DNA of 64,000 nucleotides, taken from assembly GCF_053078305.1 (NCBI RefSeq), contig NZ_CP166879.1; one strand, written 5' to 3'. Made by a program: the position numbers and the translations under genes. The stretch's first letter is position 1. Every line of letters starts with the position of its first letter. Below the pieces are notes generated by a model, which did not search any database, was not told the origin of the DNA, and saw only the letters and a program-made list of their open reading frames with translations. Below are positions 3,273 through 63,031 of this stretch, piece after piece.

Positions 3273-5735
3273 TCAGACTCCTAACTTCCATGAGAGGGTA
3301 CGCAGCAGATCGGCAAAGACACCGGCAGCTGTAACGTCATTGCCCGCACCATATCCGCGCAGCACCAACGGCAGCGGCTGATAATAGTGGCTATAAAAGG
3401 CCAGGGCGTTTTCGCCATTTTTCACTTTGAACAGCGGATCATTACCATCCACTTCGGCAATCTTCACGCGGCAGACACCATCTTCATCAATATTGCCAAC
3501 ATAGCGCAAAACTTTTCCTTCATCACGGGCCTTCGCCACGCGCGCGGCAAAGAGATCGTCGAGCTGTGACAGATTCGCCATAAAAGCGGCAACATCACCC
3601 TCGGCGTTAAACTCTGCGGGCAGCACAGGTTCAATTTCAATATCCGCCAGCTCCAGTTCACGTCCCGTTTCACGAGCGAGGATCAATAGTTTACGCGCCA
3701 CATCCATACCAGAAAGATCATCTCGCGGGTCCGGTTCGGTATAACCCATTTCCCGCGCCAGCGTAGTCGCCTCGGAGAAACTCATGCCTTCGTCTAACTT
3801 GCCGAAGATATAAGAAAGCGAACCTGAAAGAATGCCGGAGAACTTCATCAATTCATCACCTGCATTGAGCAGATTTTGCAGGTTCTCAATAACCGGTAAT
3901 CCAGCCCCAACGTTGGTGTCATAGAGGAATTTACGTCGCGATTTTTCCGCCGCATAACGCAACTGATGGTAGTAATCCATCGACGAGGTGTTGGCCTTTT
4001 TATTCGGCGTGACAACGTGGAAACCTTCGCGCAGGAAGTCGGCATATTGATCCGCCACTGCCTGGCTGGAGGTGCAGTCAACAATGACCGGGTTCAGCAG
4101 ATGATATTCTTTCACGAGGCGAATTAAGCGCCCGAGATTAAACGGCTCTTTGGCTTGTGCAAGTTCTTCCTGCCAGTTTTCCAGGTTTAGGCCATGCACA
4201 TTGGTGAGCAGAGCCTTCGAGTTGGCAACGCCGCAGACACGTAAGTCGATATGTTTATTCTTCAACCAGCTTTGCTGACGCTTCAGTTGCTCCAGCAGCG
4301 CACCGCCAACGCCACCGACGCCAATCACAAACACTTCGATAACCTGATCGGTATTGAACAGCATCTGATGAGTAACGCGCACGCCAGTGGTCGCATCATC
4401 GTTATTTACCACGACAGAGATTGAGCGTTCAGAAGATCCCTGAGCAATGGCGACAATGTTGATATTGGCGCGGGCCAGCGCGGCAAAGAATTTCGCCGAG
4501 ATCCCACGCAAGGTGCGCATACCATCACCTACCACCGAGATAATGGCCAGCCGTTCCGTCACCGCCAGCGGCTCCAGTAAGCCTTCTTTCAGTTCCAGGT
4601 AGAACTCTTCCTGCATTGCCCGTTCAGCTCGCACACAGTCGCTTTGCGGAACGCAGAAACTGATACTGTATTCGGAAGATGATTGCGTAATCAGCACCAC
4701 GGAAATACGGGCGCGTGACATTGCAGCAAAGACGCGCGCCGCCATGCCGACCATTCCTTTCATCCCCGGGCCGGAAACGCTGAACATTGCCATGTTATTC
4801 AGATTGGAAATGCCCTTGACCGGTAATTCGTCTTCATCACGGCTGGCACCAATGAGCGTACCTGGAGCTTGAGGATTTCCGGTATTTTTAATCAGGCAAG
4901 GGATCTGGAACTGGGCGATGGGGGTAATGGTGCGGGGGTGAAGAACTTTAGCGCCGAAGTAGGAAAGCTCCATCGCTTCCTGGTAGGACATCGACTTCAA
5001 CAACCTCGCATCGGGCACCTGACGCGGGTCGCAGGTATAAACCCCGTCAACGTCCGTCCAAATCTCGCAACAATCGGCGCGTAAACAGGCAGCCAGAACC
5101 GCCGCGGAGTAGTCGGAACCGTTGCGTCCAAGCACCACCAGTTCGCCTTTTTCATTACCGGCGGTGAAACCTGCCATCAGCACCATGTGATCAGCCGGAA
5201 TACGACTTGCCGCAATACGGCGGGTGGACTCAGCAATATCGACGGTAGATTCGAGGTAATGCCCCACTGCCAGTAGTTTTTCGACCGGATCGATAACGGT
5301 AACGTTGTGACCACGCGCTTCTAACACGCCGGCCATAATGGCGATCGACATTTTCTCGCCACGGCAAATCAGCGCAGCGTTAATGCTATCCGGGCACTGC
5401 CCTAACAAACTAATGCCATGCAGGACATGTTTTATTTGGGCAAATTCCTGGTCGACGAAAGTTTTCAATTGCGCCAGCGGGAATCCCGGCTGGGCGGCGG
5501 CGAGTCCCGTCAGAAGTTCGGCAAAAATACGTTCGGCATCGCTGATATTGGGTAAAGCATCCTGGCCGCTAATGGTTTTTTCAATCATCGCCACCAGGTG
5601 GTTGGTTATTTTGGCGGGGGCAGAGAGGACGGTGGCCACCTGCCCCTGCCTGGCATTGCTTTCCAGAATATCGGCAACCCGCAGAAAACGTTCTGCATTT
5701 GCCACTGATGTACCGCCGAACTTCAACACTCGCAT
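3273..5735 (-). CDS. thrA: Bifunctional aspartokinase I / homoserine dehydrogenase I
   Basis: ORF 3273..5777; start placed at the internal Met giving [17 protein letters not shown] (820 aa). Confidence 0.96.
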
Positions 5736-58153: not shown

Positions 58154-59818
58154 TTAAAACGTTTCCCAGTTCTCCCCGCTATCTGCCACTGCCATTTTAC
58201 GCGGCGTAGCTGGCGTCACGGTTTTTACCACAGCCGATGTTTCACGCTGCTGTTGCTGCTGTTGCTGAATCCGGAACACTGCCACAGCTTCGGTCAGGCG
58301 ACTGGCCTGCTCTTCCAGCGCGGCGGCGGCAGCGGCAGATTCTTCCACCAGCGCGGCGTTCTGTTGAGTTACCCGGTCCATCTCAGCAACCGCTAAGCCA
58401 ACCTGATCGATACCACGGCTCTGCTCATCAGAAGCAGAAGCTATTTCGCCCATAATGTCCGTCACGCGGGTCACAGCACTGACAATCTCCGCCATTGTTT
58501 CCCCGGCGCTTTCGACCAGCGTAGAGCCAACATCCACTTTCCCCACCGAGTCTTCAATCAGGCTTTTAATTTCACGAGCCGCCTGGGCGCTACGCTGGGC
58601 CAGATTACGCACTTCTCCCGCAACCACCGCAAAACCACGTCCTTGCTCACCCGCACGCGCTGCTTCAACCGCCGCGTTCAAAGCCAGAATATTGGTCTGG
58701 AAAGCAATGCCGTCAATTACGCTGATAATATCGGCGATTTTCTGCGAACTGGTGGAGATATCACGCATAGTCTGCACCACGTTATCTACCACTTTGCCGC
58801 CGCGTTGCGCCGTTTCAGAAGCACTTAACGCCAGGTGGCTGGCCTGGCGCGCATTCTCGGCGTTCTGTTTCACCGTTGCGGTCAGTTGCTCCATGCTGGC
58901 TGCCGTCTCTTCCAGCGAAGCGGCCTGTTGCTCGGTGCGCGAAGAGAGATCATTATTGCCGGTAGCGATTTCGCTGGCACCGCTATAGATGGCATTGGCC
59001 CCGTTGCGCACATCACCGACGGTACGCATCAGTTCTCCCTGCATATGGCGCAAACTCTCTGCCAGTTGCCCCATCTCATTAGAGCCATCCACCTCAATCG
59101 GTTTCACCAGATCGCCGCCTGCAATATGACGAATGCTGTCAATCAGGCGATTCATTGGCGCTACCAACGAGGCTTTAATACCGAACCAGACGGCGAAGAT
59201 GACCGCCAGTACGACGATCATCACGCCCAACAGAATCCACATCGCCTGGCTGTAGGAGGCATTGTTATCGCTGACGGCGATATCATAGAGCCGATCGTTT
59301 TGCTCCATGTAAGCCACATACTGCTTCTCGAAACCGTCCTGATATCCCTGGGTCGGCTGATCAAAGAACTCGTTGATTTTGCCTGCACCTAACAGTTGGA
59401 TCAGCTCCGCCAGCGCATTGTGATAAATATCGTAATTACGTTTGATCTCTGCCGCTGCGGCGGTGCTCTGACGCGGGTCACGCGGCAACGCTTCGTAATC
59501 CGCCCAGTTTTTTTCCGCCTGTTTCAGCGAAATACTGGCACTCTGCATCAGCTCAGCAACGGTTGAACCGCTACCAATATTATTCTGATCCATCATGTAG
59601 CGGATACCCGCGCGGTTGAGGGTGTTACGCGTCTGCAACAACGCGACCCAGCTGCCATTCAGCGTGGATTGCTGCTGACGAATGGTTTGTAAAACAGTGA
59701 AATTTTCTTTGTCATTCTTTAAGGCATTAAAGAACAGACCGCCTGATGTCAGTTGTAAAAGGCCAAAAACGGCCAAAACCAGCAGTAAGCTGGTCACGAT
59801 CTTGATACGTTTTAACAT
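58154..59818 (-). CDS. tsr: Methyl-accepting chemotaxis protein I (serine chemoreceptor)
   Basis: 554-aa ORF with two TM segments, HAMP, methylation sites, C-terminal NWETF pentapeptide; contains a 7-Gln tract. Confidence 0.96.
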
Positions 59819-59848
59819 GGTTTCTCTTTCCTGTGGACCGATGCAAGA

Positions 59849-59875
59849 TTTTCGGCCTGAAATGAGAAAACTTTA
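59849..59875 (-). promoter_or_regulatory. Sigma28 (FliA) class III flagellar promoter of tsr
   Basis: Minus strand reads TAAAGTTT - 11 bp - GCCGAAAA (consensus TAAAGTTT-N11-GCCGATAA) about 30-60 bp upstream of the tsr start. Confidence 0.65.
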
Positions 59876-60045
59876 TAGGTAGCGACTTGAAACTGGTTAA
59901 TTTTACCTCACTTTTTTAATTTTTGTTCAAAAATACAATAACCACTTATTGATACATTTTCTGTTCTTATTTTTTTCACACGAATTGTATCTATTTTGAA
60001 CGAAATATTTTATAGAGTGTGGAATTTTAAGAAAGGACATCTGAA

Positions 60046-60588
60046 ATGTTAAACCGTGACTTCGATCATCTCTCAACGCTATTACATCTCTTTTTTGAAC
60101 GTGAGGATATTTGCCAAAAGCTTAATATTATTGACCAAAACAATATCACCGGTTGGGAAGTGTGGTTCCAGGTAGAGTTTGCTAATATGCTCTGCTCAAC
60201 AGACCATGAATGGTGGCGTGAACAAGCACTTTCCTGTGATATGCGCAAAAAACCTGAGCGCCCGACACTACGCACAGATTTCTTACTACGTAAAAAAGGC
60301 TGGGCACAAGATAGCTATATCGCGCTTGAAATAAAACAAAACAGAGACGCGACCAGTTGTGTTAAAAATATGATCGCAGACTTAGAAAAAAGCGCAAAAA
60401 TAAAACGTTCCGAACTCGATTTACGCAGTTTCTGGACCTTGGGTATCACCCCTATGATAGACAGGGAAAGGCTGGACTCTCTCATCGATTGCTATTTAGA
60501 TGAGAAATTTTATCTTACTAAATCTCGTAAAAAACACGTTTTACTTAAAGAAATAAATAACACACCATATTGCTATATTGTTATTTAA
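60046..60588 (+). CDS. Hypothetical protein (180 aa), low GC, with PD-(D/E)xK nuclease-like motif
   Basis: ATG with RBS AAGGA 8 nt upstream; motif ...RTDFLL (D78) ... YIALEIK (E95, K97) with a preceding Glu-rich helix (E38/E44); AT-rich relative to its neighbours. Confidence 0.65.
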   Translation: MLNRDFDHLSTLLHLFFEREDICQKLNIIDQNNITGWEVWFQVEFANMLCSTDHEWWREQALSCDMRKKPERPTLRTDFLLRKKGWAQDSYIALEIKQNRDATSCVKNMIADLEKSAKIKRSELDLRSFWTLGITPMIDRERLDSLIDCYLDEKFYLTKSRKKHVLLKEINNTPYCYIVI

Positions 60589-60685
60589 TATTTATAGCAT
60601 GAATATAATTTTTAAATGAGTTACACAACCGAGGGCTAAAAATCGCTTCGGTTGTGATCATCATCACATAAATAACCTTCATAAA

Positions 60686-60713
60686 CCTTGCTCAAAACCG
60701 CTCAACCGCAAAA
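60686..60713 (+). promoter_or_regulatory. Probable BtsR (YehT) binding site in the btsT promoter
   Basis: Direct repeats ACCGCTCA ... ACCGCTTA (plus ACCGCAAA between them), resembling the ACC(G/A)CT(C/T)A repeat recognised by YehT; about 170-195 bp upstream of btsT. Confidence 0.45.
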
Positions 60714-60880
60714 CTGACCGCTTACGTCCCTAAAATAACCACTCAGTTATTTACCTTACTTTACGCGCGCGTAACTCTGGCAGCATCACTGCAGGATAGC
60801 GGTCAATTTACCTCCTCAAACGCAACGCAAACCTAGAACGGCTTCGGCCAACTATTAATCAATACATGCCAGGTTTTACT

Positions 60881-63031
60881 ATGGATACGAAAAAACTATT
60901 CAAGCACATACCCTGGGTGATTCTCGGAATCATCGGTGCATTCTGCCTCGCGGTAGTTGCATTACGTCGGGGGGAGCACGTCAGTGCCCTGTGGATCGTG
61001 GTCGCCTCTGTGTCGGTGTATCTGGTGGCGTATCGCTACTACAGTCTGTACATCGCCCAGAAGGTGATGAAACTCGACCCTACGCGCGCGACGCCTGCGG
61101 TTATTAACAACGACGGTCTGAACTATGTTCCGACCAACCGTTACGTGTTGTTTGGTCACCACTTCGCCGCTATCGCCGGTGCCGGTCCGCTGGTTGGTCC
61201 GGTGCTCGCCGCGCAGATGGGCTACCTGCCTGGCACGCTGTGGCTGCTGGCGGGGGTAGTGCTGGCCGGTGCGGTACAGGACTTTATGGTGCTGTTTATC
61301 TCCTCTCGCCGTAACGGCGCATCTCTCGGTGAGATGATCAAAGAAGAGATGGGGCCAGTACCGGGGACTATCGCGCTGTTTGGCTGTTTCTTAATCATGA
61401 TCATCATCCTAGCCGTCCTGGCGCTGATTGTGGTTAAAGCCCTGGCCGAAAGTCCGTGGGGTGTCTTCACCGTTTGCTCAACCGTACCGATTGCGCTGTT
61501 TATGGGTATCTACATGCGCTTTATCCGTCCGGGGCGTGTGGGTGAAGTCTCTGTTATTGGTATCGTGCTGCTGGTTGCCTCTATCTACTTCGGTGGCGTG
61601 ATTGCTCACGATCCGTACTGGGGTCCGGCACTGACCTTTAAAGACACCACCATTACCTTCGCGCTGATTGGCTATGCGTTTGTTTCCGCACTGCTGCCGG
61701 TGTGGCTGATCCTCGCACCGCGCGACTATCTGGCAACCTTCCTGAAAATCGGCGTTATCGTCGGCCTGGCGCTGGGTATCGTGGTGCTGAACCCGGAACT
61801 GAAAATGCCTGCGATGACCCAGTACATTGACGGTACTGGCCCGCTGTGGAAAGGCGCTCTGTTCCCGTTCCTGTTCATCACCATCGCCTGTGGTGCGGTA
61901 TCTGGCTTCCACGCGCTGATCTCTTCCGGTACGACGCCGAAACTGCTGGCTAACGAAACCGACGCGCGTTTCATCGGCTACGGCGCAATGCTGATGGAGT
62001 CCTTCGTGGCGATTATGGCGCTGGTTGCAGCGTCCATCATCGAACCGGGTCTTTACTTCGCGATGAACACTCCGCCTGCTGGCCTTGGCATCACCATGCC
62101 TAACCTGCATGAAATGGGTGGCGAGAACGCGCCGATCATCATGGCGCAGCTGAAAGACGTTACCGCACACGCGGCAGCGACCGTCAGCTCCTGGGGCTTC
62201 GTGATTTCGCCAGAGCAGATCCTGCAAACCGCGAAAGACATTGGTGAGCCTTCTGTCCTGAACCGTGCAGGTGGTGCGCCGACGCTGGCGGTAGGTATCG
62301 CTCATGTGTTCCACAAAGTGCTACCGATGGCTGACATGGGCTTCTGGTATCACTTCGGTATTCTGTTCGAAGCCCTGTTCATCCTGACCGCGCTGGATGC
62401 GGGTACCCGTTCTGGCCGCTTTATGCTGCAAGATCTGCTGGGTAACTTCATCCCGTTCCTGAAAAAAACCGACTCTCTGGTTGCCGGTATCATCGGTACT
62501 GCGGGCTGTGTGGGTCTGTGGGGCTACCTGCTGTATCAGGGCGTGGTCGATCCGCTGGGCGGCGTTAAGAGCCTGTGGCCGCTGTTCGGTATCTCCAACC
62601 AGATGCTGGCAGCCGTAGCGCTGGTACTGGGCACCGTTGTGCTGATTAAGATGAAGCGCACCCAATACATCTGGGTAACTGTTGTTCCGGCTGTATGGCT
62701 GCTTATCTGCACCACCTGGGCGCTGGGCCTGAAACTGTTCAGCACCAACCCGCAGATGGAAGGCTTCTTCTACATGGCAAGCCAGTACAAAGAGAAGATT
62801 GCTAACGGTACTGACCTGACGGCGCAGCAGATTGCCAACATGAACCACATCGTTGTGAACAACTACACCAACGCGGGCCTGAGTATTCTGTTCCTGATTG
62901 TGGTGTACAGCATCATCTTCTACGGTTTCAAAACCTGGCTTGCGGTGCGTAACAGCGACAAACGTACTGACAAAGAAACACCGTACGTTCCAATCCCGGA
63001 AGGCGGCGTGAAGATCTCTTCGCACCACTAA
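60881..63031 (+). CDS. btsT: Pyruvate/H+ symporter BtsT (CstA family)
   Basis: ORF 60866..63031; start placed at MDTKKLFKHIPWVILGIIGAFCLAVVALRRGEH (716 aa); polytopic membrane protein. Confidence 0.95.
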   Translation: MDTKKLFKHIPWVILGIIGAFCLAVVALRRGEHVSALWIVVASVSVYLVAYRYYSLYIAQKVMKLDPTRATPAVINNDGLNYVPTNRYVLFGHHFAAIAGAGPLVGPVLAAQMGYLPGTLWLLAGVVLAGAVQDFMVLFISSRRNGASLGEMIKEEMGPVPGTIALFGCFLIMIIILAVLALIVVKALAESPWGVFTVCSTVPIALFMGIYMRFIRPGRVGEVSVIGIVLLVASIYFGGVIAHDPYWGPALTFKDTTITFALIGYAFVSALLPVWLILAPRDYLATFLKIGVIVGLALGIVVLNPELKMPAMTQYIDGTGPLWKGALFPFLFITIACGAVSGFHALISSGTTPKLLANETDARFIGYGAMLMESFVAIMALVAASIIEPGLYFAMNTPPAGLGITMPNLHEMGGENAPIIMAQLKDVTAHAAATVSSWGFVISPEQILQTAKDIGEPSVLNRAGGAPTLAVGIAHVFHKVLPMADMGFWYHFGILFEALFILTALDAGTRSGRFMLQDLLGNFIPFLKKTDSLVAGIIGTAGCVGLWGYLLYQGVVDPLGGVKSLWPLFGISNQMLAAVALVLGTVVLIKMKRTQYIWVTVVPAVWLLICTTWALGLKLFSTNPQMEGFFYMASQYKEKIANGTDLTAQQIANMNHIVVNNYTNAGLSILFLIVVYSIIFYGFKTWLAVRNSDKRTDKETPYVPIPEGGVKISSHH

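Follow-up and report, generated by a model that had tools for sequence, protein, structure and literature searches.

A solitary predicted PD-(D/E)xK nuclease gene in the variable tsr–btsT spacer of Escherichia coli O157:H7 and other enterobacteria

What does a solitary AT-rich gene between tsr and btsT encode, and how did it come to occupy this spacer? The question is raised by a stretch of 64,000 nucleotides of contig NZ_CP166879.1 (RefSeq assembly GCF_053078305.1), referred to here as the window, in which an open reading frame (ORF) for a 180-residue protein lies between these two genes. Our best explanation, to which we give slightly better than even weight, is that the product is an active, self-sufficient, metal-dependent PD-(D/E)xK phosphodiesterase belonging to an uncharacterised family of single-domain proteins of about 180 residues. 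To the left of the ORF is tsr (58154–59818, minus strand) with lgoT beyond it, and to the right is btsT, with an annotated start at 60881, followed by yjiX and yjiA. A reading of the locus made from the sequence alone had described an ORF with a good ribosome-binding site in a low-GC stretch, followed by an inverted repeat, and all of these are borne out: the ORF opens with ATG behind a well-placed Shine-Dalgarno sequence (Table 1), the G+C (GC) content is 27–43% across 59800–60700 compared with 50–60% in the flanks, and the repeat arms CACAACCGA and TCGGTTGTG are located at 60624–60632 and 60648–60656. The GC content amounts to 38.5% in the ORF, 35.0% in the variable segment surrounding it and 51.9% in the whole window. 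The protein is identical to WP_000934391.1 of E. coli O157:H7 EDL933, annotated ‘hypothetical protein’, as it is in all public sources. In the Sakai strain the flanking tags are ECs5313 for the carbon-starvation protein (btsT) and ECs5315 for tsr; by position, therefore, the ORF is ECs5314.

The protein is predicted to adopt a PD-(D/E)xK fold. An AlphaFold2 model built on an alignment of 23 sequences (predicted local distance difference test score of 85.5 and predicted template modelling score of 0.84) consists of two N-terminal helices, a helix (residues 38–50), three strands (54–62, 75–83 and 91–98), a further helix (102–117), a strand (126–136) and a small C-terminal part, giving the α-β-β-β-α-β core required for the superfamily. 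Located on the first core helix of the model is E44, on strand 2 is D78 and on strand 3 is E95-x-K97. The register of the hairpin formed by strands 2 and 3 (i + j = 174), as read from the model, has D78 facing I96, between E95 and K97, and this predicted pairing of D78 with residue 96 is the canonical arrangement. Among 107 relatives with 22–46% identity, E44 is conserved in 100%, D78, K97 and D112 in 99%, and E95 and E38 in 98%; W40, D112, E59, Q42 and K115 fall within 90–99%. Foldseek returned only weak matches in the PDB, all of which belong to the PD-(D/E)xK superfamily and include Hjc-type resolvases, and in AFDB50 only uncharacterised proteins of about 180 residues, a few bearing the automatic labels PD-(D/E)XK, TnsA-N, NERD or restriction endonuclease. 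The sequence-only reading had proposed this fold from E38 and E44, a segment RTDFLL containing D78 and, 17 residues past D78, a segment YIALEIK containing E95 and K97. Its residue numbers are exact, the model and the Foldseek matches agree with the fold, and conservation of 98–100% across the family supports the catalytic assignment of D78, E95 and K97 together with E44. The ORF thus appears to represent an uncharacterised PD-(D/E)xK family with an intact predicted active site and the enzyme is very probably a metal-dependent nuclease of this class.

Sequence libraries place the family no more closely. The ORF protein has no family match in NCBIfam and nothing meaningful in PHROGs, and the PDB, searched by sequence and with profiles of 23 and 87 sequences, returned only a chance match to transthyretin. 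Matches in Pfam are all sub-threshold, comprising the TnsA-like N domain and, in one member, PDDEXK_9, both of which are PD-(D/E)xK families, and a stray match of a single member to Herpes_U44. The TnsA-like N domain (PF08722) is the only recurring one, extending over residues 56–108 and hence across D78 and E95-x-K97, and one Pseudomonas homologue is so named in UniRef; however, the query has an independent E-value of 0.11 and the best of 23 members one of 0.02, none reaching 0.001, and no match above threshold assigns the protein to PF08722. Unlike TnsA of Tn7, the ORF has neither the TnsA C-terminal domain nor accompanying tnsB, tnsC and tnsD genes, and the locus is not Tn7-like. Within the PD-(D/E)xK superfamily the protein is set apart by the lack of any defined subfamily above threshold (Pfam, NCBIfam and PHROGs) and by an identity of about 10% to its structural matches. 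In the defence-system library PADLOC-DB v2.0.0 the query and a Citrobacter relative of 80% identity gave marginal matches to oMTase (E 9e-4 and 9e-5). Of nine other members, one matched oMTase and, weakly, PDC-S58 (E 0.012), one weakly matched Csx16 (E 0.012) and seven matched nothing. The oMTase identity was rejected and put down to chance local similarity; the match is confined to the closest relatives and missing from eight more distant members.

A profile search of 1.84 billion representative proteins recovered 321 family clusters, 194 of them at E ≤ 1e-10 and nearly all 170–200 residues long. Between the window allele and that of E. coli 18KM2445, synonymous divergence (dS) is 0.68 and non-synonymous divergence (dN) is 0.019, giving a dN/dS of 0.03, a value also found among Citrobacter species; compared with cryptic Escherichia clades, dS is 0.39 and dN is 0.026–0.028. 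Given the 321 clusters and a dN/dS of about 0.03, the gene is more than a chance reading frame, and the ORF is a real and strongly constrained gene. Distant relatives that are fused or carry a name were sought with a broader, word-indexed profile search, which returned the same set of proteins only. Three longer members (P0066, P0131 and P0174), considered as possible domain fusions, seem to result from faulty gene calling. In P0066 (L061 354–1241, metagenomic) a truncated N terminus resembling an IS200/REP-associated tyrosine transposase is joined to a family member, probably an artefact of gene calling at a disrupted transposase gene.

No conserved partner gene accompanies the family, in line with the earlier description of the ORF as solitary. 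The neighbourhoods of 51 loci, one genome per species, were scanned across Gammaproteobacteria, Betaproteobacteria and Campylobacterota. Clustering of the neighbouring ORFs yielded no family shared beyond genus-level synteny; no conserved methyltransferase, antitoxin, ATPase or sensor was found, nor any conserved adjacent small gene that could serve as the antitoxin of a type II toxin–antitoxin pair. Thirty immediate neighbours were annotated: about 12 are housekeeping genes (including those for PrpC/AcnD, TamA/TamB, QueG, Gnd, IspD, FucU and FdhD), a few have a mobile or defence-like character (IS630, a retron-like reverse transcriptase, an OLD/Gabija-like ATPase, a UvrD-like helicase and a LexA/CI-like repressor), and about one-third are without a family. 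A Serratia copy is inside an integrase island, adjoining a type I hsdR gene, and the neighbours of representatives P0040, P0043 and P0050 are small unannotated genes. About eight of the 51 copies (about 16%) are split or truncated. In five Acinetobacter genomes (L046, L050, L052, L053 and L054) the family gene is found 50–180 bp after acnD of the prpC–acnD methylcitrate cluster, on the same strand, and in three other Acinetobacter genomes it follows prpC.

Known systems with similar nucleases differ from the family in their partners. For the small type IIP enzymes (BamHI, BglII, OkrAI and BstYI), a cognate methyltransferase would be expected, and none adjoins the family gene in the 51 loci; the family gene has, moreover, long been kept at a fixed chromosomal site. 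The BamHI and BglII motif is ExE/ExQ, and that of the family is ExK. In the window, where the neighbours are lgoT, tsr, btsT, yjiX and yjiA and no methyltransferase is present, no type II restriction–modification system was found. NucC needs a cyclic-oligonucleotide signal from a partner, either a cyclic-oligonucleotide-based anti-phage signalling system (CBASS) or CRISPR, and CinB, from Wolbachia, is a toxin of two domains that has CinA as its partner; neither kind of partner is present at the ORF, and identity to NucC and CinB/CidB is 4–11%.

The segment holding the ORF is sharply bounded. Between tsr and the annotated start of btsT are 1062 bp in the window and 377 bp in K-12, matching the sizes given in the sequence-only reading (about 1.06 and 0.4 kb). 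Near-identity with K-12 ends at 59875, the outer edge of the −35 box of the tsr promoter, and homology restarts at 60698, at the first ACCGCTCA repeat upstream of btsT. Enclosed between the two are 822 bp in the window and 137 bp in K-12, with no significant similarity in alignment, and the variable segment is therefore a replacement relative to K-12 rather than a clean insertion. No remnant of the ORF was found in the K-12 spacer, where a palindrome resembling a CRP site is the sole shared element. A third state is observed in BL21-type strains, in which the gap is taken up by the hpa (4-hydroxyphenylacetate) operon, whose end falls in the same right-hand region; the tsr–btsT junction thus has no fewer than three alternative contents. 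The hpa operon of B-type E. coli carries a terminator of its own at its end, immediately ahead of the palindrome (L003 (BL21) 1–1500; window about 60653–60698).

Searched with megablast against 5,426 complete E. coli genomes, the full ORF-type spacer was found in 362 (6.7%), always on the chromosome and in single copy. The sampled carriers are mostly O157:H7 and O55:H7 strains, including EDL933, with a few others. The ORF is thus absent from K-12 and most E. coli, as the sequence-only reading had supposed, and is not a conserved core gene. A third, deeply divergent allele is present in E. coli 18KM2445 (L060 2501–3043), with 89.8% nucleotide identity to the window allele. The flanks in this strain are those of an ordinary E. 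coli (dS of 0.09 for tsr and 0.04 for btsT), and an allele with a dS of 0.68 between them points to an exchange confined to the spacer or to an old polymorphism as a further process at this site.

The earlier estimate that roughly 0.6 kb had been inserted here is not supported. Four Citrobacter genomes, among them those of C. portucalensis and C. braakii, share the order lgoT–tsr–ORF–btsT–yjiX–yjiA; it recurs in Phytobacter and in cryptic Escherichia (sequences named E. marmotae and E. ruysiae), and in ‘Enterobacter’ pulveris the family gene adjoins a tsr-like gene. Between the window and the cryptic clades, the dS of the ORF is similar to that of tsr (0.54–0.61) and lgoT (0.54–0.55), with btsT at 0.085–0.10; protein identity to Citrobacter is 80% for the ORF and 86% for tsr. 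No mobile-element ends (target-site duplication, terminal repeats or recombinase gene) were found at the window segment, in which the only repeats are short chance ones, and no relic of an integron attC site. Flanking repeats are absent, and K-12 has unrelated sequence at this point in place of an empty site. The shared site in sister genera, a dS like those of tsr and lgoT and the absence of element ends thus argue for old residence and against a recent insertion. On these comparisons the simplest history is that the ORF would be an old occupant of the spacer that was lost or replaced in most E. coli lineages, and K-12 most likely lost the gene. A complication for this history is base composition, as the family gene has a GC content below that of its flanks, by 4–20 points, in 43 of 47 loci, long-resident copies included. 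The noncoding flanks of the ORF are unconserved across Escherichia, Citrobacter and Phytobacter, except for the tsr promoter and the btsT control sites.

Elsewhere the gene is carried as a cassette. In Vibrio hepatarius (L038 606–8690) it is located in an array of attC repeats of about 120 nt, similar to Vibrio cholerae repeats and at cassette spacing, and the start of the gene is 24 nt past an attC that ends in GCGTTAG. An attC of this type is also found in V. tasmaniensis, V. genomosp. F10 and V. harveyi, beginning no more than about 10 nt from the stop codon. Beginning 3 nt past the stop codon in Colwellia (L029), an Alteromonadaceae metagenome-assembled genome (L030) and Moritella (L044) is a AACTAACAAG...GTTA hairpin of 92–102 nt. 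By these signatures at least seven loci are single-gene integron cassettes, which shows that the gene can function and move as one unit. A strict scan for RYYYAAC/GTTRRRY attC sites missed the positive controls, and a relaxed scan that recovered the marine cassettes found none at the E. coli, Citrobacter or Acinetobacter copies. The window ORF is not a cassette: no hairpin of 45–145 nt bounded by AAC...GTT is present downstream. Two preprints report protection against phages by many one-gene cassettes of unknown function from integrons, some of which encode nuclease domains (10.1101/2024.07.02.601686; 10.1101/2024.07.02.601719). The family shares with such cassettes (Epona, Divona and Damona of the V. 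cholerae superintegron, and the BRiCs of mobile integrons) a small, attC-bounded one-gene unit and a nuclease fold, but its domain make-up is different, and the E. coli copy is outside any integron and without attC. As the cassette systems described (Mrr_cat with holin, DUF4365 with a RecB-like domain, and DUF6602) do not match the family (10.1101/2024.07.02.601686; 10.1101/2024.07.02.601719), we treat these preprints as context, not as evidence.

In the proposed mechanism D78 and E95, together with E44, would bind Mg2+ with K97 in the site, and nucleic acid, most likely DNA, would be cut; as with the small type II enzymes that it resembles, the working form is probably a homodimer. Because neither methyltransferase nor antitoxin is at hand, self-damage would have to be avoided by the choice of substrate, namely modified, foreign or structured DNA, or alternatively by low, silenced expression from the AT-rich promoter region. 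The likeliest role of such an enzyme may be that of a one-gene barrier against foreign DNA, whether of phages or of other incoming elements, and to this role we give somewhat less than even weight. Its presence in a minority of E. coli genomes, the low GC content, the disrupted copies and the mobile or defence-like neighbours of some copies are consistent with an accessory or foreign character. The bolder proposal, that the family is a new minimal, methylase-independent one-protein barrier to phages or incoming DNA and the ORF an unrecognised defence gene of O157:H7, is made tentatively, and we consider it rather doubtful. Several observations weigh against reading the gene as an active nuclease directed at foreign DNA. 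The literature searched mentions neither the gene nor the protein accession and offers no family member with an experiment, and by locus tag only ECs5315 (tsr) gave relevant matches; ECs5314 is not among the detected proteins or regulated genes listed in one Sakai omics study, which is a weak indication. PADLOC-DB gave no reproducible match to a defence model in the family, and tblastn searches of 50,697 phage and 72,556 plasmid records found no copy. Housekeeping genes form the majority among the annotated neighbours, and a defence gene would not usually stay at a single chromosomal site for tens of millions of years while under tight purifying selection. The substrate (DNA or RNA) and the oligomeric state are, finally, pure inference.

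An accessory nuclease acting on the cell’s own DNA, structure-specific and serving repair or recombination in the manner of Hjc, RecU or Vsr, would account for the very strong purifying selection, the long vertical residence at one chromosomal site in strictly chromosomal single copy, the frequent position between housekeeping genes, for example right after acnD in Acinetobacter, and the Hjc-type resolvases among the fold matches. We nevertheless regard it as unlikely, as the patchy distribution (6.7% of E. coli and scattered species elsewhere), the disruption of about 16% of the sampled copies, a GC content persistently below that of the host, the spread as integron cassettes and the lack of ties with a repair operon all accord better with a gene that can be dispensed with and exchanged than with one for repair. 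The nuclease could instead be a toxin or addiction factor, held in check by something unannotated (such as a small RNA, a product of internal translation or a factor encoded elsewhere), that stabilises its locus or array or kills the infected cell. A solitary nuclease without an immunity gene and the abundance of toxin–antitoxin cassettes in integron arrays speak for this, and there is precedent in the solitary E. coli Rpn (YhgA-like) PD-(D/E)xK toxins, which carry a built-in antitoxin; Met109, from which an internal product might start, is conserved in 86% of members. However, no Shine-Dalgarno sequence precedes Met109, Rfam finds no RNA, the unconserved noncoding flanks leave no conserved small ORF or RNA partner visible, the cassettes hold one ORF only, and clean loss from most E. 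coli argues against addiction. Taken together, these points make a toxin improbable.

The history favoured by the sequence-only reading, in which a foreign islet was recently acquired by this lineage in a hotspot of defence genes, draws on the low GC content, the absence of the gene from K-12 and 93% of E. coli, the hpa operon found at the same junction in B-type strains, and the spacer-confined exchange suggested by 18KM2445. Against it are the occurrence of the gene at this same position in the cryptic clades, in four Citrobacter genomes and in Phytobacter, an ORF dS relative to the cryptic clades that is not above those of tsr and lgoT, the absence of direct repeats, terminal inverted repeats, integrase and attC, and the 137 unrelated bp in K-12, where an empty site would be expected; a recent islet is on this evidence very unlikely. 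A non-functional leftover, either a decaying ORF or a catalytically dead protein that retains the nuclease fold, would suit a gene annotated only as hypothetical and not among the detected proteins listed in the one Sakai data set. With a dN/dS of about 0.03, full length in 362 E. coli genomes and catalytic residues conserved at 98–100% in 107 distant relatives, we consider this extremely improbable, and the selection data bring a dead or decaying gene close to exclusion.

Other elements of the spacer are listed in Table 1. The tsr promoter forms the left edge of the variable segment, and both its boxes are kept in K-12, Citrobacter and Phytobacter; by the known consensus TAAAGTTT-N11-GCCGATAA we take it to be a sigma-28 promoter. 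The right edge, where high identity to K-12 resumes, is formed by the direct repeats upstream of btsT, presumably BtsR/YehT binding sites. The perfect CRP-consensus palindrome upstream of btsT is found in all three spacer types (K-12, BL21 hpa-type and ORF-type) and in the cryptic clades, Citrobacter and Phytobacter. Being present in every haplotype, this putative CRP site appears to be part of the btsT control region and not of the ORF cargo. It overlaps the 3′ arm of the hairpin that follows the ORF, and ORF transcription could in this way interact with btsT activation. The hairpin, with 9 bp perfectly paired and a z-score of −3.5, is followed by no T-run or U-tract. Citrobacter keeps the stem with a different sequence (CACGGCAT/ATGCCGTG), with pairing of 100% over its outer six pairs, two of which carry compensatory A-U/G-C changes between the window and Citrobacter; the hairpin is probably the 3′ end of the ORF transcript or an insulating element. 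As a relic of an attC site it was rejected, being too short at 33 nt and not bounded by AAC/GTT in Citrobacter. Rfam at permissive settings detected no known RNA in the spacer, a consensus scan gave no strong sigma-70 promoter for the ORF, and inspection by eye of the region upstream of the ORF revealed no LexA box.

Further features are seen at btsT and beyond it. The longest btsT ORF starts at 60866 (721 residues, the length given for ECs5313 of Sakai), and the RefSeq start at 60881 gives 716 residues. In the 5′ leader of btsT, a repeat of about 125 bp resembling the enterobacterial repetitive intergenic consensus (GTGAATCCCCGGGAGCTTACAACAGTAAGTGAC) is present in BL21 (L003 about 1664–1793) and cryptic Escherichia (L066 about 4830–4950) and missing from the window (about 60862–60880) and K-12. 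The content just past yjiA also varies among genomes (L004 10368–10944; L066/L068; L073 8398–8543): a BrnT/BrnA toxin–antitoxin pair is found there in Citrobacter and some cryptic Escherichia, and a GmrSD-type enzyme in another cryptic Escherichia. This fits the start of a variable restriction region a few kilobases from the ORF.

Table 1 Features of the tsr–btsT spacer, its ORF product and Vibrio cassettes. Coordinates are those of the window unless a locus is named; a dot marks features without strand.
Feature	Position	Strand	Basis
ORF of the family, 180-residue protein, ATG start	60046–60588	+	ORF list and homologues
Shine-Dalgarno AAGGA, 8 nt before the ORF ATG	60033–60037	+	sequence; purine-rich block kept in Citrobacter and Phytobacter
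Predicted catalytic residues	E44, D78, E95, K97
Further conserved residues	E38, W40, Q42, E59, D112, K115
Variable AT-rich segment, 822 bp, 35% GC, holding the ORF	59876–60697	.	K-12 alignments, BL21 locus, composition
tsr promoter, sigma-28 type: −10 GCCGAAAA (59849–59856), −35 TAAAGTTT (59868–59875), 11-nt spacer	59849–59875	-	sequence
Stem-loop after the ORF, 9–11-bp stem, 11–15-nt loop	60624–60656	+	inverted repeat and folding
CRP-consensus palindrome TGTGATCATCATCACA, core TGTGA-N6-TCACA, predicted CRP site	60653–60668	.	consensus only
Direct repeats ACCGCTCA (60697–60704) and ACCGCTTA (60717–60724), ‘btsT regulatory repeats’	60697–60724	+	sequence, alignments
attC sites at Vibrio loci	L036 about 905–1000; L037 about 1150–1290; L040 about 1510–1542

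The protein is already in databases as a hypothetical protein of O157:H7, and its superfamily is well known; what is unusual is to find a lone nuclease that has long resided at a single site and also moves as a cassette, and nothing in this would yet surprise a specialist. Should it prove to be a commonplace enzyme of the repair type, or a passenger without activity, the finding would add just another uncharacterised protein to a very large superfamily. If it is an active nuclease, as we favour, it would be among the smallest stand-alone nucleases in an important pathogen lineage (O157:H7/O55:H7), and one with no known safeguard. How a lone nuclease has been tolerated for millions of years might then be answered by substrate choice, silencing or a hidden inhibitor, and K-12, being without the gene, provides a natural clean background. 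The family also links integron cassettes of unknown function with accessory genes fixed in the chromosome.

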